Made by a program: the position numbers and the translations under genes | Part shown: piece after piece, positions 3,110 through 52,919 of the stretch | How the letters are laid out: every line of letters starts with the position of its first letter | Numbering within the stretch: the first letter of the stretch is position 1 | The notes under the pieces: model-generated | What the model was told of the DNA's origin: nothing | Seen by the model: the letters and a program-made list of their open reading frames with translations, nothing else | The model's database searches: none | Assembly (NCBI GenBank): GCA_037132255.1 | Contig: JBAXPN010000001.1 | Location: forward strand, 340,113 to 404,112 | Source: Candidatus Falkowbacteria bacterium | GTDB lineage: Bacteria; Patescibacteriota; Patescibacteriia; Patescibacteriales; UBA12465 | Direction: 5' to 3' | DNA length: 64,000 bases

Positions 3110-4283
3110 GTAAAATTTCGTGATAAACGGCTAAAGTTTTTTGCGCACAATCCCACCAACTATATTTTTTTACTTGTTCCAATCCTTTGACTACTAAAGA
3201 CTTTCTTAATTCATTATCATTCAAAACTTTAAGTATCGAATCGACCATATCGGCTTCATTCTCGGGATTAAAATATAATGCCGCTTCGCCCAGTATTTCC
3301 GGTAAACACGTGCGATTAGAGCTCACAACCGGGCAACCCTTCGCCATTGCTTCAAGCGGTGGCAAGCCAAAACCTTCATACAAAGAAGGAAAAATGTAGA
3401 CACTCGCTTCCTGATAAAGAATTTCTAATTGCGCATCCGAAATATAGCCGGGAAAAATAACGGGACTATTTAAATTCTCTTTTTGCCAAAGATTGAGCGA
3501 ACGAGCATTATCATGAACTCGATTATAAAAATAATCCTCTTTACCGATTAGAACTAATCTCAAATCTGGTTTTTGCTGCAATAATTTTGCAAAAACATGC
3601 AATAACACTTCTAAATTTTTATGCGGGTAAGCATTTCCAACATAAAGCAAAAAATTATTGGCGATATGATATTGATTCAATGTTTCTTCATTATCAAGTT
3701 TCGCTACGAACAAAGAGTCGCGTCCTTTTGCTAGATTAGCAACCCCCTCATAAGTTACAACAATCTTATTAGGCTCTACATTAAATTTACTAATCATGTC
3801 CTGCTTGGTAAATTCTGACACCGTAATTATCTTTTCCGAACGTTTAATGGCGCTAAAAATAACCAAACGATACGCTAAATTTTTTAAACGGTAAATCAAT
3901 GGATTAAGAGTCGTTGCGCGCAAGGTTGGAAAATGAGTTAAGATTAAATCATGAATAGTTACAACAAAATTGCATGGTGTCAGAATTGGGACATTAAAAT
4001 GCGGAAAATGAATTAAATCTAGTTTTTCACGCCAAATATACAAAGGAAATAATAGTTGCTCTTTCCAGGAATACCAGGGAATTTGCAAACAAACTTTTTT
4101 TACGTTTTCTGTTTCGCAAACAAATTCGTCAAAATTTTCTAGGCTTAAAAAGATTACAAAATTAAAACCAGCGCCTATTTCTGCGCTCGTAATTTTCATT
4201 ATATTATCAACCACTTCTTGTGTATAGCGCCCCAATCCTTTACCGATTGGTCCGTAGAAGCGGGCATCAATGCCAATTCGCAT
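3102..4283 (-). CDS. glycosyltransferase family 1 (GT-B fold, GT4-like)
   Basis: Track ORF 3102-4334. EGFGLPPLEAMAKGCPVVSS (E-x7-E region) is the GT1 signature. I prefer the internal ATG at 4283 (MRIGIDARFYGP...), which removes a 41-nt overlap with the upstream gene. Confidence 0.85.
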   Translation of the reverse strand: MRIGIDARFYGPIGKGLGRYTQEVVDNIMKITSAEIGAGFNFVIFLSLENFDEFVCETENVKKVCLQIPWYSWKEQLLFPLYIWREKLDLIHFPHFNVPILTPCNFVVTIHDLILTHFPTLRATTLNPLIYRLKNLAYRLVIFSAIKRSEKIITVSEFTKQDMISKFNVEPNKIVVTYEGVANLAKGRDSLFVAKLDNEETLNQYHIANNFLLYVGNAYPHKNLEVLLHVFAKLLQQKPDLRLVLIGKEDYFYNRVHDNARSLNLWQKENLNSPVIFPGYISDAQLEILYQEASVYIFPSLYEGFGLPPLEAMAKGCPVVSSNRTCLPEILGEAALYFNPENEADMVDSILKVLNDNELRKSLVVKGLEQVKKYSWWDCAQKTLAVYHEILHV

Positions 4284-4293
4284 GAAATTTAAT

Positions 4294-5727
4294 TTAAACA
4301 AATGGTAAATTAGGTGGCGTCGATGCTGTTTCATCTTCTTTCTTTAAATCAGCCGCGTAAGAAGATTTAGGTTTACTGGAGTTAAAACCACTAAATATAT
4401 CTGCCGGCAAAGGAGTACTCTCTTCGGCCAAAGGTAAGGACGAGGGAGCATCAGCTTTTCTTCCGGGAGCTTTTTGAATCATTGGTGATTTAACATTAGC
4501 TTCAACCGGAAAATGCCATAAAGTCGCCAACTCTTCAGTATTCAATAAAAAAGGTTCTCGTCCTGCGTCAGAACGATTGATATAATTATTAAAAATTTTT
4601 CTTTTCTTTTCCTTTAAGCGTGATTCCTTCATGAAATAAACTGTCTTAGTGAATGTAGCCTTTAAATCAGGCTTAAAGCTATTAAGGTCGTTAGAAATAA
4701 ATTGTTTTATATAACCGACAAAACCACTAAAAACTTTAGCTTTATCCATAACATCCTTTTTCGCCAAGTAGATAACTCTAAGTTTTGTATAGAATCCTTG
4801 CTTAATTGATTTTAAATGCATGGCCTCAACTTGGCGTTTTTCTTTTGGAGTAAGATCAAGCATGGTTCTTTTATCGTCCTTCTTATCTTTTTTACTCGCA
4901 TCAATATCTCCCCAAATTGGATAAATTACTTCGCTCGCATCGCCCATCCATTCCAAACCTTTCATTACTAAACCTGGATCCGCTTTCTTCTTTCGGCCTA
5001 GTACTTTATCGAGTTCTTTTTGAATTGCGCCAACCCATTCAAAGCCAGTTGGGATGACAATCATTTGAAACCATAATTGTTCCCCTTGTCTAAGAGATCC
5101 ACAAAGATCCATGAGCGAAGCCATGGGATCCTTAAATTGCGTTTCGCTTGCACCCATTTTATGCTCAAATTCCTCATATGTCTTGAATGGATAATACCAA
5201 GAATTCTGCAGTATAAACTCTGAACCAAACAAATCCCATTCTTCATCAGGCCATTTTTGCGGAACAGTTTCAATATAATCATCAACTTCGGAAATTTCGG
5301 CGTCAGGATACTGTGAATACACTGAAGATTCAATTAAATTTCTAAACTCCAGAGGAGTTCTAATCAAAAACTGGGTATAGCCCTCGAGACTAACGATTTC
5401 ATAACTAAAAGATTTTTGATAAATGCCTTCGAACCATTTTTCATAAAAATTCTGCGATCCGTGTGCTCCTCCTAAATATGTGAACATGTTCTCAACCGCC
5501 TTCGGTGACTGTTCATTACCCTTCGGAATATCAATAGCGAGCAAAACTGATTTATGTGTTTTGCTCCATTTAACCCGCATGTAATACAACCAAACGTCGC
5601 GAGCTCCAATTAGAAAAATAATAGCAAAAAGAAACCAGCCCCAATTGCCTAAAAAAACCCAAAACATCCGCTCCGGGGGCAGATTCAAAAACCGTACAAA
5701 GCCGGTCGTGTTAATAACTATGTCCAT
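4294..5727 (-). CDS. single-pass membrane protein of unknown function
   Basis: 477-aa track ORF. N-terminal TM (FWVFLGNWGWFLFAIIFLIGA), then a globular region (LLAIDIPKGNEQSPKAVENMF...FSYEIVSLEGYTQFLIRTPLEFRNLIESSVYSQYPDAEI). No P-loop or catalytic motif seen. The nested 5061-5333 track ORF is an alternative frame of the same strand. Confidence 0.65.
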   Translation of the reverse strand: MDIVINTTGFVRFLNLPPERMFWVFLGNWGWFLFAIIFLIGARDVWLYYMRVKWSKTHKSVLLAIDIPKGNEQSPKAVENMFTYLGGAHGSQNFYEKWFEGIYQKSFSYEIVSLEGYTQFLIRTPLEFRNLIESSVYSQYPDAEISEVDDYIETVPQKWPDEEWDLFGSEFILQNSWYYPFKTYEEFEHKMGASETQFKDPMASLMDLCGSLRQGEQLWFQMIVIPTGFEWVGAIQKELDKVLGRKKKADPGLVMKGLEWMGDASEVIYPIWGDIDASKKDKKDDKRTMLDLTPKEKRQVEAMHLKSIKQGFYTKLRVIYLAKKDVMDKAKVFSGFVGYIKQFISNDLNSFKPDLKATFTKTVYFMKESRLKEKKRKIFNNYINRSDAGREPFLLNTEELATLWHFPVEANVKSPMIQKAPGRKADAPSSLPLAEESTPLPADIFSGFNSSKPKSSYAADLKKEDETASTPPNLPFV

Positions 5728-5775
5728 ACTCTTTTCATTATATTAACATCTATATTTTAGCATATTTTTCAAAAA

Positions 5776-5809
5776 AACAAAAAATCCGAGCGCAATGCTT
5801 GGATTTTTT
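5776..5809 (-). terminator. rho-independent terminator after the sigma-r4/HARE-HTH gene
   Basis: Hairpin ATCCGAG (5784-5790) / CTTGGAT (5798-5804) with a 7-nt loop. An A-run before it and a T-run after it give a U-tail on the minus strand, downstream of the stop at 5841. Confidence 0.6.
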
Positions 5810-5840
5810 AATTTATATCGAATTGTTGCTAAATTTTGTC

Positions 5841-6881
5841 TTATTTTGACCAATCTTTTAGGCCATAAGTTCCTCGGCTAATCAACACGTAACGATCGTC
5901 AAGGATTAATTCGTTATGAACGGTTGCGGCATTAGCAGTTTTCTTATCGAATTTCATTTCATTGATACGTTTGGCGATTTCAGTAAAGTGAAGAGGCTGA
6001 GCTTCGTGTTTTAAAATTAAATAAATCTTATCATTAACGGTCTTTGGTTTAATTTCTTCCCAGCCAGCGATACCCCATTCACCGTATTTATTCTGTTCTA
6101 AATTCTTGACCGCTTGCATAAGCGAATAAAGAATTTTATTGCTATTGATAAGTTCGGCCTTGTCAGGAAAAACCTGGCTCTTAAAAACAGATGAAATATC
6201 TGAATGACCGCCGATACTTAGCTTCTCTTGGTTTTTATTATAGGAGTCTAGTTTCTTTAATAGGTCTAATAATTCTTCAGTAGTATACGTTTTCTTAAGA
6301 GTCTCAACTTTCTTTAGTAAATCGTCAGCCAATTCTTCTAAATGATCAACTTCATCGGTCTTTAATTTAAAAGAAGGGTTGAATTTATCGTGATTCTCAA
6401 TAATTTCCAAATCGTCGCCCATTAACTTCGAAATTAAGAAATTGAAATGGTTACGGTAAGAAGAGCAATTTTTTTCGTACTCAGGTTCATTGACACTATT
6501 TTCATTATTTATTTCGAGAGCCATAACGGTTAGAATATCTAGCAGATAATCACGGCGGATAAGACCACCATGCTCACTTAAAAGATTTTCAACTGTTTGC
6601 TTTAAAACAAGCAATGAACTCTCTAATGTTTCTAATTTTTTGATTTTTTTAATACTGGCTGCCTCAATTTGTCTAACACGTTCACGTGTTAACTTATGAA
6701 GACTCCCGATTTTTTCCAGTGTTTCACCCTTATCACCCTTTAAACCAAAACGACGGGATAGAATATCCTTCTCTCTGTCTAATAGCTCAGAGAATAAAGA
6801 GTTCACGATGTTGATGGCATCAAGTCGAGCCAATTCTTCGGACTTCTCCTCTTTAATCATTTTTTCTAATAAGTTTTCCAT
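5841..6881 (-). CDS. sigma-70 region-4-like HTH protein with C-terminal HARE-HTH domain
   Basis: 346-aa track ORF. N-terminal LSRRFGLKGDKGETLEKIGSLHKLTRERVRQIEAASIKKIKKL matches sigma-70 region 4. C-terminal PLHFTEIAKRINEMKF...VHNELILDDRYVLISRGTYGLKDW matches the HARE-HTH pattern of RNAP delta (RpoE). No sigma regions 2 or 3. Confidence 0.7.
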   Translation of the reverse strand: MENLLEKMIKEEKSEELARLDAINIVNSLFSELLDREKDILSRRFGLKGDKGETLEKIGSLHKLTRERVRQIEAASIKKIKKLETLESSLLVLKQTVENLLSEHGGLIRRDYLLDILTVMALEINNENSVNEPEYEKNCSSYRNHFNFLISKLMGDDLEIIENHDKFNPSFKLKTDEVDHLEELADDLLKKVETLKKTYTTEELLDLLKKLDSYNKNQEKLSIGGHSDISSVFKSQVFPDKAELINSNKILYSLMQAVKNLEQNKYGEWGIAGWEEIKPKTVNDKIYLILKHEAQPLHFTEIAKRINEMKFDKKTANAATVHNELILDDRYVLISRGTYGLKDWSK

Positions 6882-6931
6882 ATATAAAAATAGACTTGTA
6901 AATATCTGTTAATTATACTTAATCTATCATA

Positions 6932-7903
6932 TTATTTTACATTAGTCAATACCCGCCGAAACTCAAGTATGCTTTTGTACTCCTTTAAAAGAAATTGCTC
7001 TAATGTAAGGGAAAAAATCCCAGTAACAAGAACCTTCGCTAAAATTACTAGTTTATTAGCCAAATTCTGACTTGACCAGTGTTTGACAAATATTAGATGT
7101 TGGTTTCTGAATGACCAAGAACGTATCTGGCGACTCTTATTCCGTCGTTCTCTTATTTTATTAATTGTCCCTCCCTTAGCCACAGCCGCAGTTCGGTCAT
7201 GGTACATAATTGCAGTCGGCACCAAGATAGATTTCCCTTCAATTTTATACAAACGATAGGCTAAATCACAATCTTCTTTGTACATAAAGAAGTTCTCATC
7301 AAAGTATTGATCGTTTTCCTTTATTTTTTCGAGAAAGCTCAATCTGAATAAACCAGCCGCCCCCGAAGGACCTAAAATTTTATATTGGTCAAAGCGCTTG
7401 TCGTCCTCCTTCCCTTGTCCTAAATCTTCGAAACTTAATCCCGCTTTTAATATCAAACCGCAGGAATCAAGCACCCTTGTCTTTGTATTGGCCGCAAAAT
7501 CCCAACGTCTAATTTTTGGGGCAGCGGATGCCAAGCTAGTATCTTTATTAAGAGCCAAAACAAGCTCAGAAATTGTATCTTTTTCTAAAACAGTATCAGG
7601 ATTAATGACTAAAAAATATTCTGACTGGAGACGAGAAGCCGTTCTTATTAAAATATTACAGGCTCGGCTAAATCCCAAATTGCCCGCCGCATGAATATAT
7701 TCAAGAAACTCGGGATTTGGCTTATTAAAAGCCTCGAGCTTATCGCGATTAGTATTATTATTTTGATCACTATTGTCGAAAGCGAGAACCCGATAGTCAT
7801 TGGGCTCTAAAAAACTCAAAGCATTTTTTAAGCTCGGCAAAAAATCTGCCAAATATTTAGCGCTTGAATCGTTATATGTTAGGAAGCCGACAACTATTTT
7901 CAT
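6932..7903 (-). CDS. glycosyltransferase family 2
   Basis: Track ORF 6932-7918 starts at a TTG; I use the ATG at 7903 (MKIVVGFLTYND...). AFDNSD (DxD-like) and FFMYKEDCDLAYRL are typical GT2 (rhamnosyltransferase-type) motifs. Confidence 0.8.
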   Translation of the reverse strand: MKIVVGFLTYNDSSAKYLADFLPSLKNALSFLEPNDYRVLAFDNSDQNNNTNRDKLEAFNKPNPEFLEYIHAAGNLGFSRACNILIRTASRLQSEYFLVINPDTVLEKDTISELVLALNKDTSLASAAPKIRRWDFAANTKTRVLDSCGLILKAGLSFEDLGQGKEDDKRFDQYKILGPSGAAGLFRLSFLEKIKENDQYFDENFFMYKEDCDLAYRLYKIEGKSILVPTAIMYHDRTAAVAKGGTINKIRERRNKSRQIRSWSFRNQHLIFVKHWSSQNLANKLVILAKVLVTGIFSLTLEQFLLKEYKSILEFRRVLTNVK

Positions 7904-38338: not shown

Positions 38339-40210
38339 TTAATAAACAATTACTTCTCCCTCTTGAAGACCACCAACTACTTCTGCTTTTTTACCGTCAG
38401 TAAAATTTGTTACGACATTTCTAACGCTGCCATCAAGCATTACGACAGATGGTTTTCCGCCTATATTTCTAACCGCTTGAACCGGAACAGCAATCACACC
38501 CGGCGCTTCTGAAGTAATAAACTCTAAAGCCGCGGTCATGCCCTCTCTAATTTGCGAAGCGCCAGTATTAGATAGGATAACTCTAACTAAATAAGTTACG
38601 ATTCCGTTCGAGCTTGTTGTTGAGGTTAAAGAGATAAAGCTAATTTCGCCGGTTAAATTTACGCCGTCAACCGCGTCAAAAGTAACCGCTGCTTTTTCGC
38701 CTACTTTTAATTTGCTAATGTCAGCCTCTTCGACATTTACTTCAATATATAAGGTATCATTATTAATGATTGTCGCAACCGTTTTAGAAGTGCTGGAATC
38801 AAGAATTATGTCACCCTTCTTATAATTTAACATTGAGACAATACCATCAATTGGAGCAATTAAAGTCGCTTGTTCCATATTATATTTCGCGCGGTCGACA
38901 GAAATCGCCGCGGATGTTAATTGTGCACGTGCGGACGCTAAATCGTTTTCAGAAATCGGTGCGAGTAAATCAGTATAATCATTCTTAGCTTGCGCTAAAG
39001 ATATTTCTCTTGCTTTAACTGATATTGTTGAATTATTTATATTTTGTTCAGCTTGGCTTTTTATTGTCTTTAAATCATTCACGGCCTTATTATAAGCGGT
39101 TTGATATGAGCTTAAACTACTCTTGGCGTTATCGACACCTTGAGTCGCGCTATTTAGGCTCGTCGCCATAGAGATAGCGCTTGATTGGTTTGAGTTAATC
39201 ATTGATTTAAAACCATCAAGTTTTGTCTGCGACATCCCGGTAAACGTTATCGAGGAGTCTAGTAATTCCTGCATATCACGTTCATGATTTTGCATGGCGC
39301 TAATTACTTGATCAGCTGTATTCGCAACACTGTCAATTGTGCTGTTGGCGCTATTATCATTAAGCGAATTCACTTGGGCATCAAATTGTGTACGCAAACT
39401 CTTAACTTTTATATAACTTGCCTTAGCGCTTGATAAAGAAGTCGAATTTAAAGCGCCCAATCCCAAGCGATACTCACTATTAACATTCGTATCATCAACG
39501 CCGACAATGCTATCAGAATCACGAAGTAATTTTCCCAAATTAAGATCAATTGTTTTTAAAGTGTTTGTTAAACTTAAATATGAATTATGAACGATCTCGC
39601 TGTCATTAATCGTATTATTAAGTTTAAGATTACTTTCGGCAGTTGTGACATTTGTTTCAGCGTTAGTAATACTTTGAGCAGAATTTGATTTTGTTTGTTC
39701 AAGACTTATTTTGGCTTGATCAAGCGAAACTTGAGCTTGCTCAATCGAGGCCTTAGCTTTGCTCTTCTCGCTCTCAGTTGCGGTTGCTAATTTAGTATTG
39801 TATGAAGCGAGCGCAGATTGATAATTATTATAAGCGCTGCGAAGTTCGAAGGCTAGGCTCTCAGTTTTTACTGAAGCAATTTTATCACCTTTTTTAATCT
39901 TATCGCCTTCTTTGGTATAAACATTATCGACTTCTAAATTTCCCGAAACCGGAAATGATAATTCGACGCCATCCTTTGCAACGACTTTTCCTGTCGCGCT
40001 AACCGATATTCTTAAATCTTCCTTTTTCACCGTGTACTGTTTTTGAGTAACTACTGCGGCCGAAGTCTGTTTTTTCTTACTAACATAATAATAGGTGCCA
40101 CCGCCGATTGCTAATATTAATATAGCGATAATTATAAATTTCTTTTTAAAAATAAAGCGAAAGAAGCCACCGCGAGCTTTTTTGCTTTCCTCAAGTATTG
40201 ATTGAGCCAT
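38339..40210 (-). CDS. HlyD/MacA-family periplasmic adaptor with a long coiled coil
   Basis: 623-aa track ORF. N-terminal TM, lipoyl-like halves (KKGDKIASV... / IAPIDGIVSM), a very long Ala/Ser/Asn/Gln-rich helical hairpin, and a C-terminal beta-barrel. Confidence 0.8.
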   Translation of the reverse strand: MAQSILEESKKARGGFFRFIFKKKFIIIAILILAIGGGTYYYVSKKKQTSAAVVTQKQYTVKKEDLRISVSATGKVVAKDGVELSFPVSGNLEVDNVYTKEGDKIKKGDKIASVKTESLAFELRSAYNNYQSALASYNTKLATATESEKSKAKASIEQAQVSLDQAKISLEQTKSNSAQSITNAETNVTTAESNLKLNNTINDSEIVHNSYLSLTNTLKTIDLNLGKLLRDSDSIVGVDDTNVNSEYRLGLGALNSTSLSSAKASYIKVKSLRTQFDAQVNSLNDNSANSTIDSVANTADQVISAMQNHERDMQELLDSSITFTGMSQTKLDGFKSMINSNQSSAISMATSLNSATQGVDNAKSSLSSYQTAYNKAVNDLKTIKSQAEQNINNSTISVKAREISLAQAKNDYTDLLAPISENDLASARAQLTSAAISVDRAKYNMEQATLIAPIDGIVSMLNYKKGDIILDSSTSKTVATIINNDTLYIEVNVEEADISKLKVGEKAAVTFDAVDGVNLTGEISFISLTSTTSSNGIVTYLVRVILSNTGASQIREGMTAALEFITSEAPGVIAVPVQAVRNIGGKPSVVMLDGSVRNVVTNFTDGKKAEVVGGLQEGEVIVY

Positions 40211-40218
40211 AATATGTA

Positions 40219-40890
40219 TTAGTTAATTAAAACAAAGTCTGCAATCTTTTTGTCGGTCACACTTGTATTAAGCCAAACCGTAATCATTTTATCGGCCGTG
40301 ACATCAGCTAATGACGCCTCAACTGTAGTTCTTTTGCCGGTAGCATCATTTTCCGATTTCATCATCTTTATTCCGACTGGGATAACAATTGTTTCTTGGC
40401 CCGTGCTCATGGCCTTGAGACTAGCAAGCATAGCGGCGCGATCAGTTGTTCCCCCGCCGCCAGGTCCACCATCGGGACCACCGGGACGTCCTCCAGCAAA
40501 ACCACCGGGACCAGCTTGACCCGCTGCAGGACGACCTTCCATATTTCCTCCTAGTGATAACGATGGGGCGTCTTGATTTCTTGGACTACTGCTTGCGTTT
40601 GTTTCATTAGTCGAACTTGCTCGTCGCCCTTGATTAGCGGCTATTTTTAATACCGTGACTTCATTGCCCACAATAGTTGTTACTACGCCTCGAACATCAG
40701 CTTGACGATCTGGCTGACCAAAATCAGGCATTCGACCATTTCTTTGGCCAGAACCCTGAGCTGGAGTATTTTGCGTATTTTGCAAATTCGTTGTAGTAGC
40801 TGTCTTATTACTACAGCCAGTTAAGACGGGCAGGCAGGCGACAATTGCCAACGAAATTAAGACGCCTTTCTTGTTTTTTCTCATAAACAT
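40219..40890 (-). CDS. lipoprotein with Gly/Pro-rich linker
   Basis: 223-aa track ORF. Lipobox LPVLTGC after a hydrophobic signal; low-complexity GQAGPGGFAGGRPGGPDGGPGGGG segment. First gene of the exporter operon. Confidence 0.65.
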   Translation of the reverse strand: MFMRKNKKGVLISLAIVACLPVLTGCSNKTATTTNLQNTQNTPAQGSGQRNGRMPDFGQPDRQADVRGVVTTIVGNEVTVLKIAANQGRRASSTNETNASSSPRNQDAPSLSLGGNMEGRPAAGQAGPGGFAGGRPGGPDGGPGGGGTTDRAAMLASLKAMSTGQETIVIPVGIKMMKSENDATGKRTTVEASLADVTADKMITVWLNTSVTDKKIADFVLIN

Positions 40891-43695: not shown

Positions 43696-43728
43696 TAAAA
43701 AACACGGACTTATCTCCGTGTTTTTTTT
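43696..43728. terminator. bidirectional terminator (adk / hydrolase convergent)
   Basis: AACACGGA (43701-43708) / TCCGTGTT (43715-43722), A-run before and T8 after. The hydrolase stop codon (43710-43712) sits in the loop. Confidence 0.7.
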
Positions 43729-44348
43729 ACATTTTTTAAATCGCTTTTTATCATTTTTACAATTTCGGGAAACTTCGTAATTTTGAAATGCCCGGGGATA
43801 TGATCGTAAATAACGATGTGAGAATTTTTTAGCTTCTTGGCATATTTAGCTGCATGAGAAACTGGGACAATATCATCGTCGCTCGAAAAAAGTAAATGAA
43901 CATTGTCACAATTTTTTTCGATTAATGATAAATCTGATTTAAGCTTAAAGCCGCCGACCAAATCTTCTTGAGAAACTGAATTATCAAATGGCGGGCAGAC
44001 CAAATAAACAGATAATATCTTTTTAGGGAATTTATTTTCTGATAGATATCTGGCCAAAAAAATACCACCTAGAGATCCCCCAACAAGAACCAAATTATTC
44101 CGCAAATAAGGAAAATACTTTTCAAAGTTTAATTTCCATAAATCATACTTGGCATTCTCGACAAATGGCATTCGCGGACGGATAATTTTAAATTCCTTGC
44201 CTAATTGCTTATCTAAATAATCACCATGCCATCTGATACTCGGCGTTAGTTTTACTTCGGAATTTTTTAAAAATTTAATATAATCACTTTGACTTTTAAA
44301 AGTAAAGCCGCCGTGAATATATAGTATTTGAGGTTTTTTTAACAACAT
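43710..44348 (-). CDS. small alpha/beta serine hydrolase (YdeN/RBBP9-like)
   Basis: 212-aa track ORF. Nucleophile elbow GGSLGG, acid in SSDDDIVP, His in IPGHF. 13 nt downstream of the 1194-aa gene. Confidence 0.75.
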   Translation of the reverse strand: MLLKKPQILYIHGGFTFKSQSDYIKFLKNSEVKLTPSIRWHGDYLDKQLGKEFKIIRPRMPFVENAKYDLWKLNFEKYFPYLRNNLVLVGGSLGGIFLARYLSENKFPKKILSVYLVCPPFDNSVSQEDLVGGFKLKSDLSLIEKNCDNVHLLFSSDDDIVPVSHAAKYAKKLKNSHIVIYDHIPGHFKITKFPEIVKMIKSDLKNVKKTRR

Positions 44349-44361
44349 ATAAATATTATTC

Positions 44362-47300
44362 TTAAGAGTTTTCTTTGAGATAAACCGCCCTCAGATTCTT
44401 TTCATATTCATACGAACCTAGAGGATATTTTTTATTTAAATTAATCACCTTTTCTTCGCCGTCATCATTTTTTAACACAGAGCTCTCAAGGGTCTGTTGG
44501 AATAGGCCAGCTCGATTAGTCGAGTGTCCGTGCTGCTTATCTAGGACTACTCCGCTATACGCATTTTCAACTGCAAAATTAATAACTATATCTTTTATTT
44601 TATGATAAAGTTTTTTAGCCGAAACCTCAGAGACTAAACCGACAGATGGGTTAGGGCAGAATAATAAATATTTCTTGCTCTTTGATTCGTCGAGTGTCTT
44701 TAACATGACAGTTCCCATACAACGATTACGTTCTTGATCAAACATAACAAACTCAAAATATTTCTCATCATTCCAAAGTGTTGAACTCGTCGCGAGACAT
44801 ATATCTCCTACCATTCGTGCTTGCGAGTTTTCTTTATTTTTTCCAAAATAACCGGTTATCTCACGCTCCTTTCTTAATTTTTTTTCACCACGGCCACTGT
44901 CCACCTCAAAGACTTCTTCATATTTTGACATCTCCGTAAATATTTCCTGATAGGTTTTACTTTGCGCCTTTTCCAGAAGCGTTAATTGATTCTGACTACT
45001 TAAAATAGGTAATATTTCTTTAATCTTCCCCTCCCATAAATCAGCAAAAGATGCAAAATTTGAGGTCCTAAAGTCTTGCGCGATCTCATCCGAATTTCGC
45101 TTAATAAACTCGTTGGATTGGAATAAATTCTCTAAGCTCTTTTTTATTTTCTTTGAAATTACCGCATCGCTCAAACTTGCGGAAGGAATTTGCTTTAAGC
45201 TCTCTTGAATTTTTACTCCCAAATTTTGCAACTTGATTTCATTTTCTTCCTGAACATTGCCTGCTAAATAATTTTTATCTTCTGAAACAATCAATTTATT
45301 TTTAATTGTCTTTATGGTTTCTTTCAGATTGTCGCCATATTTTTCTGTTAGTTCGTCGAGCATAATATAGTTACGAGAATCATAATTTTCAGAATCTTTC
45401 AGTCGGTCGGCGCTTGCGTTAACAAATTGATCGTATGAATCTTTTAATTGATAAGCAAGAACTACGTTCAAAGTTTCGCTATTATATCCCTTTACATCAA
45501 GATACTCGAGAATTTTTCCTTCTAGTGTTTTTGTTCTGCTGTCAGTAATTTCTAATTCTAAAAATTTCATTAAACGCTCTGCATCGGCTAAATTCTTAAT
45601 GTCGGCTATTCTTTTTTTATAAATTTCAAGTAAACTACTATCTGCTTTTTCATTGTTTTTTAATCGATAAGACGATACGCCGCTTATTAAAAACTTTTCT
45701 CCTTCGGTCTTAAACTTCAAACCCTTGAGATGCTCGCTATGGTCGACCAATAAATCTATATTTTTCTGTGAATCGTAATCTCGTCGCGGATAGACCATTG
45801 ATAAAGACAACTTATAATTCGTTGCTGTCGCGTCTTGAGGAATATTTCTCGCCATCTCAGATGCTTTTAATTTCATTTCCGGTAAAAGCGCTTCTCTCTC
45901 AAATACACTTTTTCCTTTAACCAATTTTAGATAGTCTGCGAAGAAAGCTTTATCGTCGGCATAACGTTCGATAATTTTTCGAGAATCAAAGAATAGTTCC
46001 AAATCTTCATCATTTCTGGCGACGGCACCTTGCGCCATCATATCCATAAATGAACGGAACACTGAACTATTTTCACTGCCGATTTCTAAACGTGCAAAAT
46101 TTTTATTATAGAAAGAATCCTCCGGTAATTTTTTTATCATTTCAAAAAAACCTTGATTTAGACCTTTCTTTTCGACGGCCATATCAAACTCCTGAGCGCC
46201 AACTTCGACATCTAAATTCCTGAAATTCATTTCTGTTAATACCCTGAAACCGAAACCCGCTTTAATATACTTCTGAAATGTCCGCTCCTGATCTTCTTGA
46301 GAAAGTTGACCAAAATCTAAATTACAAACCTTGTCCATGTGCCTTATTCCTTCAGTCGTGAATTCATTGAGAACCCCACGGTCCGCTAAATATTTAATAG
46401 TAACGTGATCAGCTAAAAGCTCAAAATGATTATCTATTAAATAGACGATTTTTTCTTTATCAATTTCAAATTTAATTATATTGTCACAAATTGTCCAAGC
46501 TCTATTTTTTTCTATAAGCAAATCAAACATTTTCTCGCTTAGACCAGAAAACCAATTTATATTATCAAGGACGACGTCTTCATAACCTTTGTTGATCAAC
46601 AAGAAGGCAATTTCTTCGCCTGGTTTATTACGGAGACCTTTTGCTAGCGATGCAAAAACATCAACGCCGCTCTCTTCAATCATTCTAAAGTAATCTTTAT
46701 CCCCGAGAATATGTTCAAAACTTGAATCACAAAGTGCGATTGTATTTTTTTGCTTAGCAAGTTCCACCCTCAACCATTCTACGTCAAAATGTTCTGCATC
46801 ATTATAACTAACGCGTTTAATAACGGCTTTCGAATAAAAACTCTCAATTAATTTCATCGCCCCCTCACCGTTATCAAGGCGATGCTCCCATTTACTAGGC
46901 GCTGCAATCTCGAGCTCTTCTGCTAAGGCATCACGCTGTTGGGAATAATTTATTTTATCGAGATTATTTAATTTTTCACTAATTTCTTTTTCCTCAATAA
47001 ATATTCCATTTCTTAATAATGAGTCGTAAGCCTCAAGTAATTGATTGCTATCGCCAATATTTTTATTAACCCAGTCTATTAGCAGCTCTTTACTAAAAGA
47101 TGAACAAACTGGGACTATTTTATTAAAAAAAGAAAGCGCATCGATATCTTTAAAACGCGGAAAATCATTTAAAATAGAACTAATGTTATTTCGTGCTAAT
47201 AAATTATCTAAAACATGCTCGCTTAAAGATTCAAATTTGGGATAAATCTGAGCATAAAAAGCTTGGTTGCTCTCCCCTCTTTCAAGTAAATCATCGGCGA

Positions 47301-47946
47301 CAAATGAAGGCAAAGTTTTACAAGAATAATAATATTTTTCCTGATAAAAAAACCCCATCAGATCTAATTTTTTAAAAACATTGACAGCGTCGGCATCTAA
47401 CAGATCAATTCTTTCAAGGTAACGCCCATCTCTCCATTTATAATGGTCCCCCTTATTCAGAAGGTATTCTTTCGACTCATTATAAAAACTTCTCTTTTTA
47501 CCTTCATTAACCGAAACATCAAGAATGTCCTCTCTATCTATCTCTCTGTCAGGCAAAAAATCCTTTTTTAGATCATCCCCGCCCAAAGCAAGAAGCATCA
47601 ATTTATTTGTATAGCAATCCTCAGAATTTAGTTTATTAGCGTCATTAGCGAGCTTAAATTTTGCAATTAATAATTTTCTTAAATCAAGGCTATCGTTTTC
47701 TTCGCTTTGCGCTAGAGTTTCATTATTAATAGATCTTGAGTCAGCTAGCTCCTGAAGCCAAGCCTGAACAATACTCTCAGGGTTAATATCTTTACTTTGA
47801 CGCTTTAAATTATGTGAAAAAATATCTGAAACTAAACCGAATTCTTGATCAATTTTTTCAAAATACTCGCTTGGCTCAACTTTTTCGAGAAGATCTGCAC
47901 TTTTCTTTTCTGGCTGAACACTGGCAATATTTTCTATTTTTTTCAT
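44362..47946 (-). CDS. large (1194 aa) soluble protein of unknown function
   Basis: Uninterrupted track ORF. Acidic and helix-rich, with no TM, signal peptide, P-loop or other motif I recognise. The C-terminal ~170 aa look globular (VGDICLATSSTLWNDEKYFEFVMFD...LLFCPNPSVG...VVLDKQHGHSTNRAG). Confidence 0.75.
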   Translation of the reverse strand: MKKIENIASVQPEKKSADLLEKVEPSEYFEKIDQEFGLVSDIFSHNLKRQSKDINPESIVQAWLQELADSRSINNETLAQSEENDSLDLRKLLIAKFKLANDANKLNSEDCYTNKLMLLALGGDDLKKDFLPDREIDREDILDVSVNEGKKRSFYNESKEYLLNKGDHYKWRDGRYLERIDLLDADAVNVFKKLDLMGFFYQEKYYYSCKTLPSFVADDLLERGESNQAFYAQIYPKFESLSEHVLDNLLARNNISSILNDFPRFKDIDALSFFNKIVPVCSSFSKELLIDWVNKNIGDSNQLLEAYDSLLRNGIFIEEKEISEKLNNLDKINYSQQRDALAEELEIAAPSKWEHRLDNGEGAMKLIESFYSKAVIKRVSYNDAEHFDVEWLRVELAKQKNTIALCDSSFEHILGDKDYFRMIEESGVDVFASLAKGLRNKPGEEIAFLLINKGYEDVVLDNINWFSGLSEKMFDLLIEKNRAWTICDNIIKFEIDKEKIVYLIDNHFELLADHVTIKYLADRGVLNEFTTEGIRHMDKVCNLDFGQLSQEDQERTFQKYIKAGFGFRVLTEMNFRNLDVEVGAQEFDMAVEKKGLNQGFFEMIKKLPEDSFYNKNFARLEIGSENSSVFRSFMDMMAQGAVARNDEDLELFFDSRKIIERYADDKAFFADYLKLVKGKSVFEREALLPEMKLKASEMARNIPQDATATNYKLSLSMVYPRRDYDSQKNIDLLVDHSEHLKGLKFKTEGEKFLISGVSSYRLKNNEKADSSLLEIYKKRIADIKNLADAERLMKFLELEITDSRTKTLEGKILEYLDVKGYNSETLNVVLAYQLKDSYDQFVNASADRLKDSENYDSRNYIMLDELTEKYGDNLKETIKTIKNKLIVSEDKNYLAGNVQEENEIKLQNLGVKIQESLKQIPSASLSDAVISKKIKKSLENLFQSNEFIKRNSDEIAQDFRTSNFASFADLWEGKIKEILPILSSQNQLTLLEKAQSKTYQEIFTEMSKYEEVFEVDSGRGEKKLRKEREITGYFGKNKENSQARMVGDICLATSSTLWNDEKYFEFVMFDQERNRCMGTVMLKTLDESKSKKYLLFCPNPSVGLVSEVSAKKLYHKIKDIVINFAVENAYSGVVLDKQHGHSTNRAGLFQQTLESSVLKNDDGEEKVINLNKKYPLGSYEYEKNLRAVYLKENS

Positions 47947-47969: not shown

Positions 47970-47978
47970 ATTATATCA
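47970..47978 (-). promoter_or_regulatory. extended -10 promoter (TGaTATAAT) of the 1194-aa gene
   Basis: The complement of 47970-47978 reads TGATATAAT, with 23 nt to ATG 47946. It abuts the upstream terminator U-run. Confidence 0.45.
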
Positions 47979-48003
47979 AAAAGGCCTTTCTTTCGAAAGA
48001 CCT
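47977..48003 (-). terminator. rho-independent terminator of the purM-like gene
   Basis: On the minus strand GGTCTTTC-GAAA-GAAAGGCC (one mismatch) followed by TTTTT. Plus-strand stems are at 47983-47990 and 47995-48002. Confidence 0.55.
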
Positions 48004-48030: not shown

Positions 48031-49221
48031 TTATTCATAATTAAAACTGCCGTGAGAAGTAATAAGCTGAACGCTATTTTTTGTATTAAGATTATTAGAA
48101 TAAATACATGAACCCAAATGGATGACAGGCAGACCACATTTATTTTTGATCGAATCAAGAGCTCGAACAAAAACTGGGTTATCTTCTCCAACAATATCAA
48201 TGCCTATCCCACAATTGAAACTAGTAAACATGTTCTCCCAAGTCTCACTACTTTCGCTTTTGATAAGCTTAAATATTGGCGGAGGCGTCGGCATCAATTT
48301 TGTGTAAATTATTCCACCTTTACCAATATTCTTGATTTTAGTCGCACCGCCACCCGTGTTCATAGAAATGCCGTGCAACATATGGATGGCATTATTTTCC
48401 CGGAGAGAACTTACAAGTTCTTTTATGACTAGCGCCCATTGCCGAGTTGGGGAAAGTAAAGCTTCACTAACTGTAATACCGCCCAATATTTTCGGGCGCG
48501 CGTCATATTCATAACGTCCCTTATAATAGACATCGTCCCTCTTCAACTGCGGATACAGGAAATTATAATCTCTACTCAACAAACAACTTCGACCCAAAGT
48601 TAAACCATTAGACATAATTCCCGAGTTAAGCTCGGTTTCCCATGAAGCCTGCCCGTCGCTAGGAATACCGAAGATTAAATCGCCGTCCTGAACGTTTCCG
48701 CTGATTATATTAGCGCGATCTGCCCAAGCAGTAACCGTTAGATCGAATACGCCTGATCTTACCTGATCGCGCAAATCAGCTGTTTCGCCCCCCAAAAATT
48801 TAATTGTTATACCGTGTTTTTGGTAAAGCTCTTTTAGTTCAGACATGCGCAAGCCAACTGCCCGCATAACAATCTCTTTTATTTCTTTTGGGAGATTAAG
48901 ATTAAGCACATCAGTAATAAGATAAGTTCCATCGACAAAGCCACAAGCGGCGATATCTCCTGTATTCATCGACAACGCGTCGTCGACCATTCCATTAAAA
49001 ATGGCGCGGTCGCTAGTCTTCATATAATGGAGCAGTCTTTGCACAAACTTGCTACCATCTCCATCTTGATGTTGCGTTATAACCTGAGAATAGCGGTTCG
49101 GGTCTGTGATAATATTAACGAAAGCCCCTGGGAATTCGTTGTCGATAACGCGCTCGAAAATCTCGTGCACATTTTGTTTATGCGGGTCTACCCCCAATAC
49201 TTCATACATGCTTGTTGCCAT
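48031..49221 (-). CDS. divergent AIR-synthase (PurM)-fold protein
   Basis: 396-aa track ORF. Segments in the same order as PurM: YEVLGVDPHK (Y..AGVD), QHQDGDGSKF (DGVGTK), DDALSMNTGDIAACG (D.VAM.VND), LLSPTRQW (LL.PTRIY), HGISMNTGGG (AH.TGGG), FTSFNCGIGIDIV (RTFNCGVGM). Perfect SD AAGGAGG 7 nt upstream. Confidence 0.75.
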   Translation of the reverse strand: MATSMYEVLGVDPHKQNVHEIFERVIDNEFPGAFVNIITDPNRYSQVITQHQDGDGSKFVQRLLHYMKTSDRAIFNGMVDDALSMNTGDIAACGFVDGTYLITDVLNLNLPKEIKEIVMRAVGLRMSELKELYQKHGITIKFLGGETADLRDQVRSGVFDLTVTAWADRANIISGNVQDGDLIFGIPSDGQASWETELNSGIMSNGLTLGRSCLLSRDYNFLYPQLKRDDVYYKGRYEYDARPKILGGITVSEALLSPTRQWALVIKELVSSLRENNAIHMLHGISMNTGGGATKIKNIGKGGIIYTKLMPTPPPIFKLIKSESSETWENMFTSFNCGIGIDIVGEDNPVFVRALDSIKNKCGLPVIHLGSCIYSNNLNTKNSVQLITSHGSFNYE

Positions 49222-49573: not shown

Positions 49574-50737
49574 TCAACTCTTTTTTTTACTTAATAAATA
49601 GCCATTATTGTATCCCGAATAAACATCATTATCGTAGTACTTCGGGACTAGCTCGTTACCAATAAAATCAACATCTTCAATCGCCGCCGGTCGGTCTGGC
49701 CCAACCGCGCTAATTCTTAGATCTCTAGAAAAATCTTTAACCCAGCCATTAAGAGCTCCTGAACTACACGCGTTACCGATTAATTGAGCCTTATCAGTAA
49801 ATATTTCTTTTAAATTCGATATATTTTTCGCAATTAAATCTTGACCAACATAACCCTTATCATCCTTCTCTGCACCTAAATAAAAACCTTCCGGCTCACT
49901 ATGAGCAGATAAAATAGCTAGGGATACTTTATTTTTAAACTCCTGTTTTAATTTAATAAGCTCGCGCGCTAAGGCGACATTATTATCGCATTCAACGACC
50001 CGAAAATTGCGAACTTCTTTTTGCTGGTCATATATCTTTTTCCAGACATCAGATTGCTTATCAAAAGCGCCGTTCCAATCCTCACCCGCAAATAACATCA
50101 ATGCTATTTCTTTGCTTTTATCCGTTTCGTTAAGCTGCTGTAATAATATTTCTTTTGGATAGCGCTGAAAGTTTGTTATGCCATATTTTTCATGCAATTT
50201 TTTAACAGATCCTGGCGCTTCCTCGTCAAGTTCGGTCATGGTTTTGAATACTTCAACCGCGGCATCATATGATTCGCCGCTAACAAACTTATCTTGATTA
50301 TCAAAAATATAATTCCAGTCATGTCCCGAAGCGAAAGCCTTCACTACACTCTCATCGTTCATTAATACTCTCTTAAATTTTTCAACCTGAAAATCCTTAA
50401 TACCGAATTGATCTTCTGCTGCCTGGCGCCAAGATTCCTGAATTGCGCCTGAGTCAGGATGAGAAATAATATCTGCGGAATTTTTTTTCCAGTCAGCTAG
50501 GCTTTCTCTCTCCTGGCCAGTTAGAGTTTTTAAATTTTCATTAGTCCAGTTCGATTTAAAGGAAGAAAATTCATTGTCTAAAGACTCTTTTTCCCAAGTA
50601 CTTGATGCGGAAACAAGACCACTCAAATCTTCTGTCGCCTCTTCTTGCAATTTAGCTAAGTCAACTTTATGATTTTCTGTCTTTCGTTTAATTTCTTTCT
50701 CTTGAACATCAATATTATCGTGACCTAATTTATCCAT
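49574..50737 (-). CDS. soluble protein with a caspase-like (clan CD / CHAT-like) His-Cys dyad in its C-terminal half
   Basis: 387-aa track ORF. Acidic helical N-terminal half. The C-terminal half has a strand-helix pattern with VSLAILSAHSEPEGFYLG and, about 44 residues later, AQLIGNACSSGAL. This is the order and spacing of the catalytic His and Cys in caspase-fold peptidases. Inference from motif only. Confidence 0.65.
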   Translation of the reverse strand: MDKLGHDNIDVQEKEIKRKTENHKVDLAKLQEEATEDLSGLVSASSTWEKESLDNEFSSFKSNWTNENLKTLTGQERESLADWKKNSADIISHPDSGAIQESWRQAAEDQFGIKDFQVEKFKRVLMNDESVVKAFASGHDWNYIFDNQDKFVSGESYDAAVEVFKTMTELDEEAPGSVKKLHEKYGITNFQRYPKEILLQQLNETDKSKEIALMLFAGEDWNGAFDKQSDVWKKIYDQQKEVRNFRVVECDNNVALARELIKLKQEFKNKVSLAILSAHSEPEGFYLGAEKDDKGYVGQDLIAKNISNLKEIFTDKAQLIGNACSSGALNGWVKDFSRDLRISAVGPDRPAAIEDVDFIGNELVPKYYDNDVYSGYNNGYLLSKKKS

Positions 50738-50994: not shown

Positions 50995-51002
50995 TTTTAA
51001 TG

Positions 51003-51073
51003 CACGGGATGAGGGAATCGAACCCCCGCCAGCGGTTTTGGAGACCGTTATACTACCACTATACGAATCCCGC
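51003..51073 (-). tRNA. tRNA-Trp (anticodon CCA)
   Basis: Hand-folded, 71 nt. Acceptor GCGGGAT/ATCCCGT (G1.U72), D-arm GTAT-AGTGGTA-GTAT, anticodon loop CTCCAAA, T-arm GGGGG-TTCGATT-CCCTC, discriminator G. The 51000-51203 track ORF overlapping it is spurious. Confidence 0.9.
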
Positions 51074-51245: not shown

Positions 51246-51773
51246 TTAATAATTTTCTACCATGACCTCAAAAAATGCTTGTGGGTGGCTACAGGCTGGG
51301 CAAACTTTCGGCGCTTCAAGTCCTTCATGAATATGACCACAATTAGCACATTTCCAACGTTTAATTTCCGGCTTCTTAAACACTTCGCCATTTTTTACAT
51401 TAGCGAGAAGTTTTCGATAACGAGCTTCATGCGCTCTTTCAACTTCTGCGACTTCTTTAAATAAACGAGCGACCTCGCCATGGCCCTCTTCAATCGCATC
51501 CTTTTCCATATTCGGATACATTGTTGTATTTTCATAACTTTCCCCTTCGGCAGCCGCCAAGAGATTAGCTTCAGTTTCACCGATTAATTCAAGCTGCTTA
51601 GCCCAAAGTTTTGCGTGTTCTTTTTCGTTAGTAGCGGTTTCCTCAAACAAAGCGGCTATTTGCTCATAGCCTGCCTTGCGCGCGACTGAAGCAAAATATG
51701 TATATTTATTTCTGGCCATTGATTCGCCAGCAAAGGCATCCTGCAAATTTTTTGTTGTTTTTGGTCCAAACAT
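51246..51773 (-). CDS. rbr: rubrerythrin
   Basis: 175-aa track ORF. Diiron ExxH motifs (EKEHAKLW, VERAHEARY) and a C-terminal rubredoxin-like CANCGH...CPACSHP. Confidence 0.9.
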   Translation of the reverse strand: MFGPKTTKNLQDAFAGESMARNKYTYFASVARKAGYEQIAALFEETATNEKEHAKLWAKQLELIGETEANLLAAAEGESYENTTMYPNMEKDAIEEGHGEVARLFKEVAEVERAHEARYRKLLANVKNGEVFKKPEIKRWKCANCGHIHEGLEAPKVCPACSHPQAFFEVMVENY

Positions 51774-51797
51774 AAATTTATAATTAATTATATTAAA

Positions 51798-52919
51798 TTA
51801 TTTTTGTGCTAAATGTTTTGGGTGATCCATTTTTTCCTCTTTTTTTATTTCGTCGCAACCCTTGCTTTCAAGATCATCACAAAATTCAAGTTCATAAATA
51901 TGAAATATAGTAACTGCTAAAGCAACTACTAATGGACCAACGAATACACCCCAGAAACCGAGTAAAGCGATGCCCCCCAAGATTGAAAAGAAAACAAAAA
52001 TTGGATTAATTTCCGCTTTATCTTTAATCATATAAGCGCGAACCACATTATCAGTTAAACCAATCACGACTGCACCCCAAACAAGAACGAAAACTCCCTG
52101 CCAAATGTCACCAATCAACAAATAATATATACCAACCGGAACATAGAAAATCATTGAGCCAACGTAAGGAAGAAGCGACAAAAGTGAAACAAGAACGAAG
52201 GCAAGAAAAATTGGAAAACCAACGAGGGCAAAACCGAGTGCCCCAACTACTCCCTGTGCAAAAGCCGCAACAAAGGTTGAAACAAGTGTTGTGTAACTAA
52301 CAATGCTGAATTTCTTAAATATTTCTTGATCGTACTTATTAGGCAGAGGGGAAAGATACATTAAGCGTTGAAGCATCTTTTTACCATCAACAAAGAAAAA
52401 GAACATTGTTAAGATTATAAGTAATATCGAAAAAATAAAACTTGAGGTCTCCTTAACAATAGAAGTGGCTCCAGACAAAAGCCAAGAGCTTGAATCTTTT
52501 ACGGCTGATAGCATTGTGCTCTGGAAAGCTTTATCCTGAAAATTATATTTATCTAAGTGAAAATAGCGCAGTGGACTCTCGGCGACAATCTCATTCTTAA
52601 AAACATCATTTAAACTATGATCATCAAAAAAAGCAACAGTTTCATCATAAGTTCCAACTGATTTTTCCGCTCCGTAAATAATTAAACGCACTGAAGGTAA
52701 AATAATAAGTAGCACCAATAATAAGCACATCAAAAGAGCGGCTATATTCTGCCGTCCTTTGAATAGTTTAGTTAGTGCAGTAAATGGCTTATAGAATATA
52801 GTTGCCAAAACAGCCGCCATTAATATTTCCGTCAAAAAAGGCCTAAACACCAAGTAACAGCCGATGATGACCAGGAAGACCAGAATCAGCAAAAAGGGCT
52901 TGGTTAAACTTTTAGGCAT
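51798..52919 (-). CDS. AI-2E family transporter (PerM-like permease)
   Basis: 373-aa track ORF, polytopic. The conserved C-terminal part LSLLPYVGSMIFYVPVGIYYLL...LTDNVVRAYMI fits the AI-2E/UPF0118 family. Confidence 0.8.
   Translation of the reverse strand: MPKSLTKPFLLILVFLVIIGCYLVFRPFLTEILMAAVLATIFYKPFTALTKLFKGRQNIAALLMCLLLVLLIILPSVRLIIYGAEKSVGTYDETVAFFDDHSLNDVFKNEIVAESPLRYFHLDKYNFQDKAFQSTMLSAVKDSSSWLLSGATSIVKETSSFIFSILLIILTMFFFFVDGKKMLQRLMYLSPLPNKYDQEIFKKFSIVSYTTLVSTFVAAFAQGVVGALGFALVGFPIFLAFVLVSLLSLLPYVGSMIFYVPVGIYYLLIGDIWQGVFVLVWGAVVIGLTDNVVRAYMIKDKAEINPIFVFFSILGGIALLGFWGVFVGPLVVALAVTIFHIYELEFCDDLESKGCDEIKKEEKMDHPKHLAQK

Follow-up and report, generated by a model that had tools for sequence, protein, structure and literature searches.

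Does a 1194-residue bacterial protein that resembles nothing in the curated libraries stand alone, and what might it do in the cell? The question is raised by the longest open reading frame (ORF) in a 64,000-nucleotide stretch of a Candidatus Falkowbacteria contig (JBAXPN010000001.1, positions 340,113 to 404,112 of the forward strand; the whole stretch is called the window hereafter), which lies immediately upstream of a small serine hydrolase gene. A first-pass annotation, made from the letters alone, had taken the product for a lineage-specific orphan, a large effector- or scaffold-type protein whose pairing with the hydrolase suggested an enzyme/partner or toxin/processing relationship. We find instead a member of a widespread, unnamed family of the Patescibacteria (Candidate Phyla Radiation, CPR), and the account that we favour, giving it a little better than an even chance, is that of a cytoplasmic, three-part, scaffold-tethered, cysteine-containing acyltransferase-like enzyme. 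The ORF and the parts of its product are:

44362..47946, minus strand: the large ORF, complete, 1194 residues plus stop, ATG start; product of 138 kDa, isoelectric point 5.15
46030..47946, minus strand: N-terminal region, residues 1–639, predicted to be all-helical and solenoid-like; low-confidence model
44923..46029, minus strand: central conserved domain, residues 640–1008, all-alpha with a beta-hairpin (750–762) and a 46-residue helix (961–1006); high model confidence
44365..44922, minus strand: GNAT-like alpha/beta domain, residues 1009–1194, predicted order β1-α1-α2-β2-β3-β4-α3-β5-α4-β6-β7
44797..44799, minus strand: codon of Cys1050, present in 100% of 157 family members, in a D-x-C-(W/L)-A motif of the predicted α1-α2 loop

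The frame runs without interruption through 1194 codons (the runner-up in the window has 838), and since about 7% of codons would be stops at the ~34% GC of the surrounding DNA, we estimate the probability of its arising by chance at near 1e-39. The product is hydrophilic (grand average of hydropathicity −0.54), with no transmembrane segment on a Kyte-Doolittle scan (19-residue window, maximum 1.06), no P-loop or Walker A motif, and no signal peptide, its N-terminus not being hydrophobic; both structural models described below are almost wholly helical up to residue 1008. The first-pass annotation had called the ORF the longest of the window and uninterrupted, and its product acidic, soluble and helix-rich without transmembrane segment or P-loop. 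This physical description is correct, as it also is for the flanking signals, the hydrolase and the terminator to which we return below.

Whether the protein is an orphan depends on how its relatives are sought. A word-indexed homologue search returned 7 of them, wrongly suggesting near-orphan status. That impression was corrected when 1.84 billion cluster representatives (clusters at 50% identity) were scanned exhaustively by HMMER with a profile built from residues 101–1194 and three relatives: of the 730 representatives matched at E ≤ 1e-3, 284 also pass a threshold of 1e-30. Most of these matches cover profile positions ~580–1159 alone, that is, the C-terminal ~500–550 residues, and a further profile search yielded full-length orthologues (P0010, P0159, P0158, P0012, P0009 and P0164) that are 37–48% identical. 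All named members are listed as 'hypothetical protein' from metagenome-assembled genomes (MAGs) of the Patescibacteria group, of Peregrinibacteria or of unclassified bacteria, and the family appears to be confined to one large lineage, Patescibacteria/CPR. The claim of lineage specificity has thus held up, and that of an orphan has not; nor is the protein a lineage-restricted singleton. Curated families gave no match: the whole 1194-residue protein gave nothing above noise against Pfam, NCBIfam, PADLOC, PHROGs and PDB sequences, a Pfam scan of 34 family members (E ≤ 1) returned no common family, phage genomes held no match to the C-terminal module, and full-text literature searches turned up no description of such a family. 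It was the HMMER scan that revealed a large uncharacterised family. Its fold class is already known; the family itself, its repeat, its central domain and its set of invariant residues are not in curated libraries.

Some relatives come from contigs with other labels or in fragments. Contigs L004 (CAZSAA010000009.1), L013 and L009 are filed under 'uncultured Gammaproteobacteria' or 'Dysgonamonadaceae' MAGs; because the gene content of L002 and L004 looks patescibacterial, mis-binning of the contigs so filed is likely. On a 157-kb MAG contig (L011) the family gene is split into ORFs of 126 residues (3537..3917) and 1044 residues (4298..7432) separated by a gap of ~380 nt, and is a pseudogene or the result of an insertion or an assembly error. 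Two contigs of one MAG (L007 and L012; JALNZW01, isolate SO_2017_LW2 bin 120) carry partial relatives cut at contig ends, the latter holding the N-terminal 198 residues and the former an ORF that begins near query residue 105; these may be fragments of a single gene or parts of two paralogues.

What the conserved C-terminal module might be is suggested by its predicted structure. An AlphaFold2 model of residues 640–1194, made with 43 sequences (alignment A4), has a mean predicted local distance difference test (pLDDT) of 89.3 and a predicted template modelling score of 0.66. Domain parsing of this model, as proposed in the first-pass annotation, separates the helical domain of residues 640–1008, for which Foldseek returned no convincing PDB match, from a compact alpha/beta domain formed by the last ~186 residues, close to the compact domain of ~170 residues that had been anticipated. 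Secondary structure assigned to the model by DSSP runs β1 1028–1035, α1 1038–1046, α2 1056–1059, β2 1063–1070, β3 1075–1086, β4 1092–1100, α3 1110–1127, β5 1132–1135, α4 1147–1155 and β6/β7 1174–1190, the predicted domain (1009–1194) thereby having the GNAT core topology, β1-α1-α2-β2-β3-β4-α3-β5-α4-β6(-β7). In a Foldseek search against the PDB, about 40 of the 50 top matches were GNAT acyltransferases aligned over 140–190 columns, among them NatD, GmvT, AtaT, TacT, Naa60, SpeG, FeeM and KKT23, with Foldseek probabilities of 0.85–0.97 for the high-probability ones; almost all of the best matches in the viral-structure library BFVD were GNAT, N-acyltransferase and FemAB proteins. The best reading of residues ~1009–1194, judged from the predicted model, is a domain of GNAT-like fold.

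The residues that the family keeps fall at telling places in this predicted fold. Across the 157 family members aligned to the profile Cys1050 is invariant, E1039, G1078, N1099, P1100, N1144 and R1145 are 99% conserved, and D1048 (97%), A1125 (95%), D1136 (94%) and Y1179 (92%) follow; alignments A3 and A5 give a conservation picture that agrees. These positions lie in the α1-α2 loop (D1048-x-C1050), at the end of β4 (N1099-P1100), just past β5 and at the start of α4 (T-N1144-R1145). In canonical GNAT enzymes we take the counterparts of the α1-α2 loop, the β4 end and the α4 start to be, respectively, the acceptor site, the beta-bulge and donor pyrophosphate site, and the pantetheine site. We know of no described GNAT family in which the invariant cysteine of D-x-C-(W/L)-A and the N-P and N-R pairs can be recognised. 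By the residue after the cysteine, the C-terminal domains of 185 sampled proteins divide chiefly into a 'C-W' subtype (141 proteins) and the 'C-L/I' subtype of the window protein (36).

The N-terminal region is of a different kind, variable where the module is conserved. In relatives, two short stretches of the profile are matched repeatedly, in tandem, ahead of the module, and a hidden Markov model (HMM) built from 30 such segments defines a repeat unit of 28 residues, roughly (E)IAxKLIEAGxGxxVAxNLxKFxGLDH, that occurs in 1–20 copies in 77 of the 157 sampled proteins. The repeat had escaped the first-pass annotation, which saw none, and self-BLAST of the window protein likewise finds no internal repeats; degenerate copies are nevertheless present, since the HMM matches the window protein twice:

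46432..46617, minus strand: two degenerate 28-residue repeats, residues 444–505 (EEIAFLLINKGYEDVVLDNINWFSGLSEKMFDLLIEKN...), independent E-value 1.4e-10
47137..47301, minus strand: degenerate repeat copy or copies, residues 216–270, independent E-value 1.2e-4

Searched against Pfam, the repeat consensus matched no genuine repeat family. An all-helical, repetitive N-terminus is also what HEAT/ARM alpha-solenoids have, and one distant member of the family, P0185, carries Pfam HEAT_2 instead of the repeat (1.5e-9); the 28-residue unit (LIEAG...NLxKF), however, corresponds to no Pfam repeat family, and the window protein has no Pfam HEAT match. The full-length AlphaFold2 model, made with 8 sequences, has an unusable C-terminus and is informative just for the helicity of residues 1–1008; a fold search with this low-confidence model gave low-probability solenoid matches (importins, CAND1). 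Copy number and sequence of the N-terminal part differ strongly among relatives, and the N-terminus of the window type is found in just 14 of the 185. The two halves have also diverged unevenly: the N-terminal 640 residues of the window protein are about equally like two groups of relatives (31–32% identity to P0002–P0008, 34–39% to P0010/P0158/P0159), whereas its C-terminal half is 55–58% identical to one group and ~21% to the other (the 'DACWAS' subtype). Such a pattern points to an exchange of modules or to strongly differing rates of change in the two halves.

In the account that we favour, the helical, solenoid-like region derived from the 28-residue repeat (residues ~1–640) would serve as a binding platform, the conserved all-helical domain (~640–1008) is the second part, and the GNAT-fold domain (~1009–1194) would act in the manner of acyl-CoA N-acyltransferases. 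Most likely an acyl, possibly aminoacyl, group would be taken from an ester or thioester and passed to the substrate that the helical parts hold; Cys1050 would carry the group transiently, as the nucleophile of a ping-pong mechanism, or else be an indispensable residue of the active site. Several observations weigh against this account. Every Foldseek E-value is 0.009 or higher (best 0.009–0.03) and none reaches E ≤ 1e-3; there is no sequence-profile link to a GNAT family, whether in Pfam and NCBIfam for the window protein or in Pfam for the 34 members; and searches of PDB sequences, run with one profile of the whole C-terminal module and another of just its GNAT-like domain, found no relevant match. 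With E-values weak and sequence profiles silent, the fold assignment rests on topology and on structural matches that are consistent but weak, and the clustering of the invariant residues is likewise read from topology alone. The CoA-binding motif A, Q/R-x-x-G-x-G/A, is absent between β4 and α3, where the window protein has N1099-P-S-V-G-L-V-S and the family consensus is N-P-x-E-N-x-I-N, without a conserved glycine pair. The model of the N-terminal part is of low confidence (mean pLDDT 43.9 over the full length), and in some 14 distinct neighbourhoods of family genes that we examined there is no conserved neighbour that points to a substrate.

The missing motif A, together with the want of an obvious general base or acid, is what gives weight to a non-catalytic scaffold or adaptor whose GNAT-like domain would be a ligand-sensing or protein-binding pseudo-enzyme, comparable to the GNAT-like domain with which Mycobacterium tuberculosis ICL2 binds acetyl-CoA. 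Chains of ICL2 are indeed among the Foldseek matches (ranks 6, 36 and 46, at low probability), and the helical repeat makes up most of the protein. We nonetheless think this unlikely, because seven polar or small residues, a fully conserved cysteine among them, are invariant across a highly divergent family at canonical GNAT active-site positions, and such invariance is what one would expect of an enzyme more than of a domain that only binds. In a further reading the domain would be no transferase but a hydrolase or protease built on a cysteine and a histidine, close to what the first-pass annotation saw in the potentially catalytic cysteines and histidine of this region. Part of that suggestion survives: Cys1050 is invariant with an aspartate two residues ahead of it, N1144 is conserved, and a histidine past β5 (KQHGHSTNRAG) is found in ~68% of members, including most of the window type. 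C1097 (LLFCPNPS), however, is not conserved, most members having Arg or Gly there, and the histidine is missing from many members, such as IIIDRKSAASTNR and VVDYAGGAGTNR. With the histidine not invariant, and with the predicted fold GNAT-like and not papain-, NlpC/P60- or CE-like, the protease-like reading fails on both counts, and we regard it as improbable.

The effector reading, in which the protein and the serine hydrolase encoded downstream would form a working pair, either enzyme and partner or toxin and processing enzyme, starts from the arrangement of the locus:

43710..44348, minus strand: PF06821 serine hydrolase, 212 residues, its ATG 13 nt past the stop of the large ORF
43697..43726, no strand assigned: bidirectional intrinsic-terminator-like hairpin with a 12-bp stem, an A-run and a T-run, common to the convergent adk (adenylate kinase) gene
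47970..47978, minus strand: extended −10-like TGATATAAT, 24 nt 5' of the ATG of the large ORF; consensus match only
47982..48003, minus strand: terminator-like hairpin and T-run that closes the upstream PurM-like gene and separates it from the large ORF; consensus match only

At first pass a promoter of the ORF's own, the 13-nt gap to a hydrolase with its triad and a shared bidirectional terminator after the pair had been noted. The 212-residue protein scores 33.8 bits against PF06821 Ser_hydrolase (YdeN/RBBP9-like; gathering cutoff 22) and has the family's G-x-S-x-G, Asp and His as S92 in GGSLGG (residue 90), SSDDD (155) and PGHF (185); the likeness to PF06821 concerns this protein only, which is separate from the large one. 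The two genes are on the same strand with no terminator seen between them, and they are probably co-transcribed in this organism. The effector reading can also draw on the top fold matches, some of which are the GNAT toxins of toxin–antitoxin systems TacT, AtaT and GmvT, and on a PlsC-type acyltransferase gene downstream in one other lineage, a loose common theme of acyl and ester chemistry. The phyletic data largely refute it. By tblastn over loci L001–L016 the hydrolase recurs at a single locus, L003, where the large protein is 93% identical to that of the window, and at the later loci, judged by the precomputed Pfam annotation of neighbours, no hydrolase-type neighbour appears; a 213-residue downstream gene of L002, considered as a hidden hydrolase, shows no similarity by BLASTP. 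Because the association is limited to so close a relative, the hydrolase is a lineage-specific neighbour and no functional partner of the family; the proposed pairing has to be given up, and the neighbourhood comparison that had been suggested for it found no conserved partner. Elsewhere the downstream genes are mutually unrelated (a Bro-N protein, a zinc-finger protein, a PlsC-type acyltransferase, MscL, a peptidase and unknowns).

Nor does the large protein itself look like a toxin. GNAT toxins of type II toxin–antitoxin systems are stand-alone proteins of ~150–175 residues encoded beside an antitoxin, whereas here the domain ends a 1194-residue protein and no antitoxin- or immunity-like neighbour recurs in the ~14 neighbourhoods. 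Polymorphic toxins and secreted effectors combine a conserved N-terminus with a variable C-terminus, the opposite of this family, which moreover has no hydrophobic N-terminus and no recurrent downstream gene; no defence-system (PADLOC) or phage match (PHROG, phage genomes) was obtained. Distant relatives also show synteny with the rubrerythrin and AI-2E permease genes, which further suggests vertical inheritance, and we consider the effector reading highly improbable. Of the earlier description of a large effector- or scaffold-type protein, the soluble, scaffold-like helical N-terminal part is retained and the effector is set aside.

Returning to the acyltransferase-like enzyme, its C-terminal domain is best compared with members of the GNAT superfamily. 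The family shares with NatD/Naa40 (4ua3), Naa60 (5hh1), SpeG, FeeM (2g0b) and TacT/AtaT/GmvT the predicted order of strands and helices over ~170–185 residues, and these are its best structural matches; its conserved residues at the β4 end, the α4 start and the α1-α2 loop correspond in position, a mapping made from general knowledge of GNAT enzymes. Unlike them, it has neither sequence or profile similarity to GNAT proteins nor the Q/R-x-x-G-x-G/A motif, and its domain terminates a helical protein of 1000–1600 residues where theirs stands alone. FemABX proteins offer a second parallel, with a FemAB-family match in the viral library (Foldseek probability 1.00, E 0.05) and a long helix preceding the catalytic domain, but they have two GNAT-like domains in ~330–420 residues and no sequence similarity to this family, which has one. 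In concept the closest likeness is to the eukaryotic NatA (Naa15–Naa10) and NatB (Naa25–Naa20) complexes, which, from general knowledge of their architecture, combine a large helical-repeat scaffold with a small GNAT unit, and the fold search ranks a Nat catalytic subunit first. Here a single bacterial polypeptide with a different, 28-residue repeat is involved, and the likeness is a conceptual one.

A bolder proposal, which we hold to be distinctly unlikely, would make the family a cysteine-dependent acyltransferase class that is new and specific to Patescibacteria, its GNAT scaffold having gained a cysteine nucleophile, lost the classical CoA motif and been fused to its own substrate-docking solenoid. 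Such a protein would be a single-chain counterpart of the eukaryotic Nat scaffold and catalytic complexes, and its target would be a major one in the cell: ribosomal or nascent proteins, for instance, or else envelope components or lipids from the host, which these epibionts, as lipid auxotrophs, have to remodel. Two lineages hint faintly at chemistry of acyl groups or lipids, that of the window through its esterase neighbour and that of L017 and L018 through the PlsC-type acyltransferase.

A large part of bacterial diversity belongs to the Patescibacteria/CPR, whose tiny genomes, mostly from uncultured organisms, carry many conserved genes that are unannotated. What was a 'hypothetical 1194-aa orphan' can now be placed in a defined family that comprises 730 or more clusters (50% identity) and for which we have a domain layout, a newly recognised repeat of 28 residues, a high-confidence model of the shared C-terminal module and a few invariant residues open to mutation (D-x-C, N-P, N-R); a misleading hydrolase 'partner' has been removed as a lead. 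If the protein is a cysteine-dependent, GNAT-like acyltransferase, it would be a new catalytic variant in a very well studied superfamily and would imply a lineage-wide modification activity in reduced, host-dependent cells. Unannotated families are common in CPR genomes, which tempers the point somewhat. The analysis establishes the architecture, how large the family is, which residues it conserves, its predicted fold and the want of a conserved partner gene; catalysis, donor, acceptor and the part played by the cysteine are what we infer.

Upstream, the locus combines a shared chromosomal setting with a local difference. A block of Fpg, AI-2E permease and rubrerythrin genes stands upstream of the family gene at L001 and L008 and is also found in the window (51246..52919), which suggests vertical inheritance at a chromosomal site. 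In the window, a tRNA gene and two extra genes lie between this block and the large ORF:

48031..49221, minus strand: 396-residue divergent protein of the PurM/AIR-synthase superfamily (TIGR00878, 69 bits against a cutoff of 236; Pfam AIRS, E 0.049)
49574..50737, minus strand: 387-residue protein that matches no family, likewise upstream of the large ORF
51002..51073, minus strand: tRNA-Trp(CCA), between the rubrerythrin gene and the 387-residue gene

Both protein genes are kept in L003 and are missing from the otherwise syntenic rubrerythrin-to-large-gene interval of L001 and L008. The tRNA-Trp borders the pair of genes by which this locus differs from L001 and L008, and so may be an insertion point.

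Other lineages have arrangements of their own. In that of P0158/P0159 a gene for a 742-residue protein without Pfam match (L015, 3755..5983; L017, 2757..4985; L018, 2062..4290) ends 15–17 nt before the family gene, and at L017 and L018 the PF01553 (PlsC-type) acyltransferase gene follows it; the arrangement may be a lineage-specific operon. The 742-residue and 232-residue neighbours at L015, considered as paralogues of the family protein, gave no match to it, and 56-residue ORFs just upstream of the family gene at L014 and L022 are mutually unrelated, hence a coincidence and not a shared element. Farther along the window itself, two minus-strand genes encode a 223-residue protein that begins like a lipoprotein and contains a long low-complexity stretch rich in Gly and Pro (40219..40890) and, after it, a 623-residue coiled-coil-rich protein that resembles membrane-fusion or HlyD-type adaptors (38339..40210).

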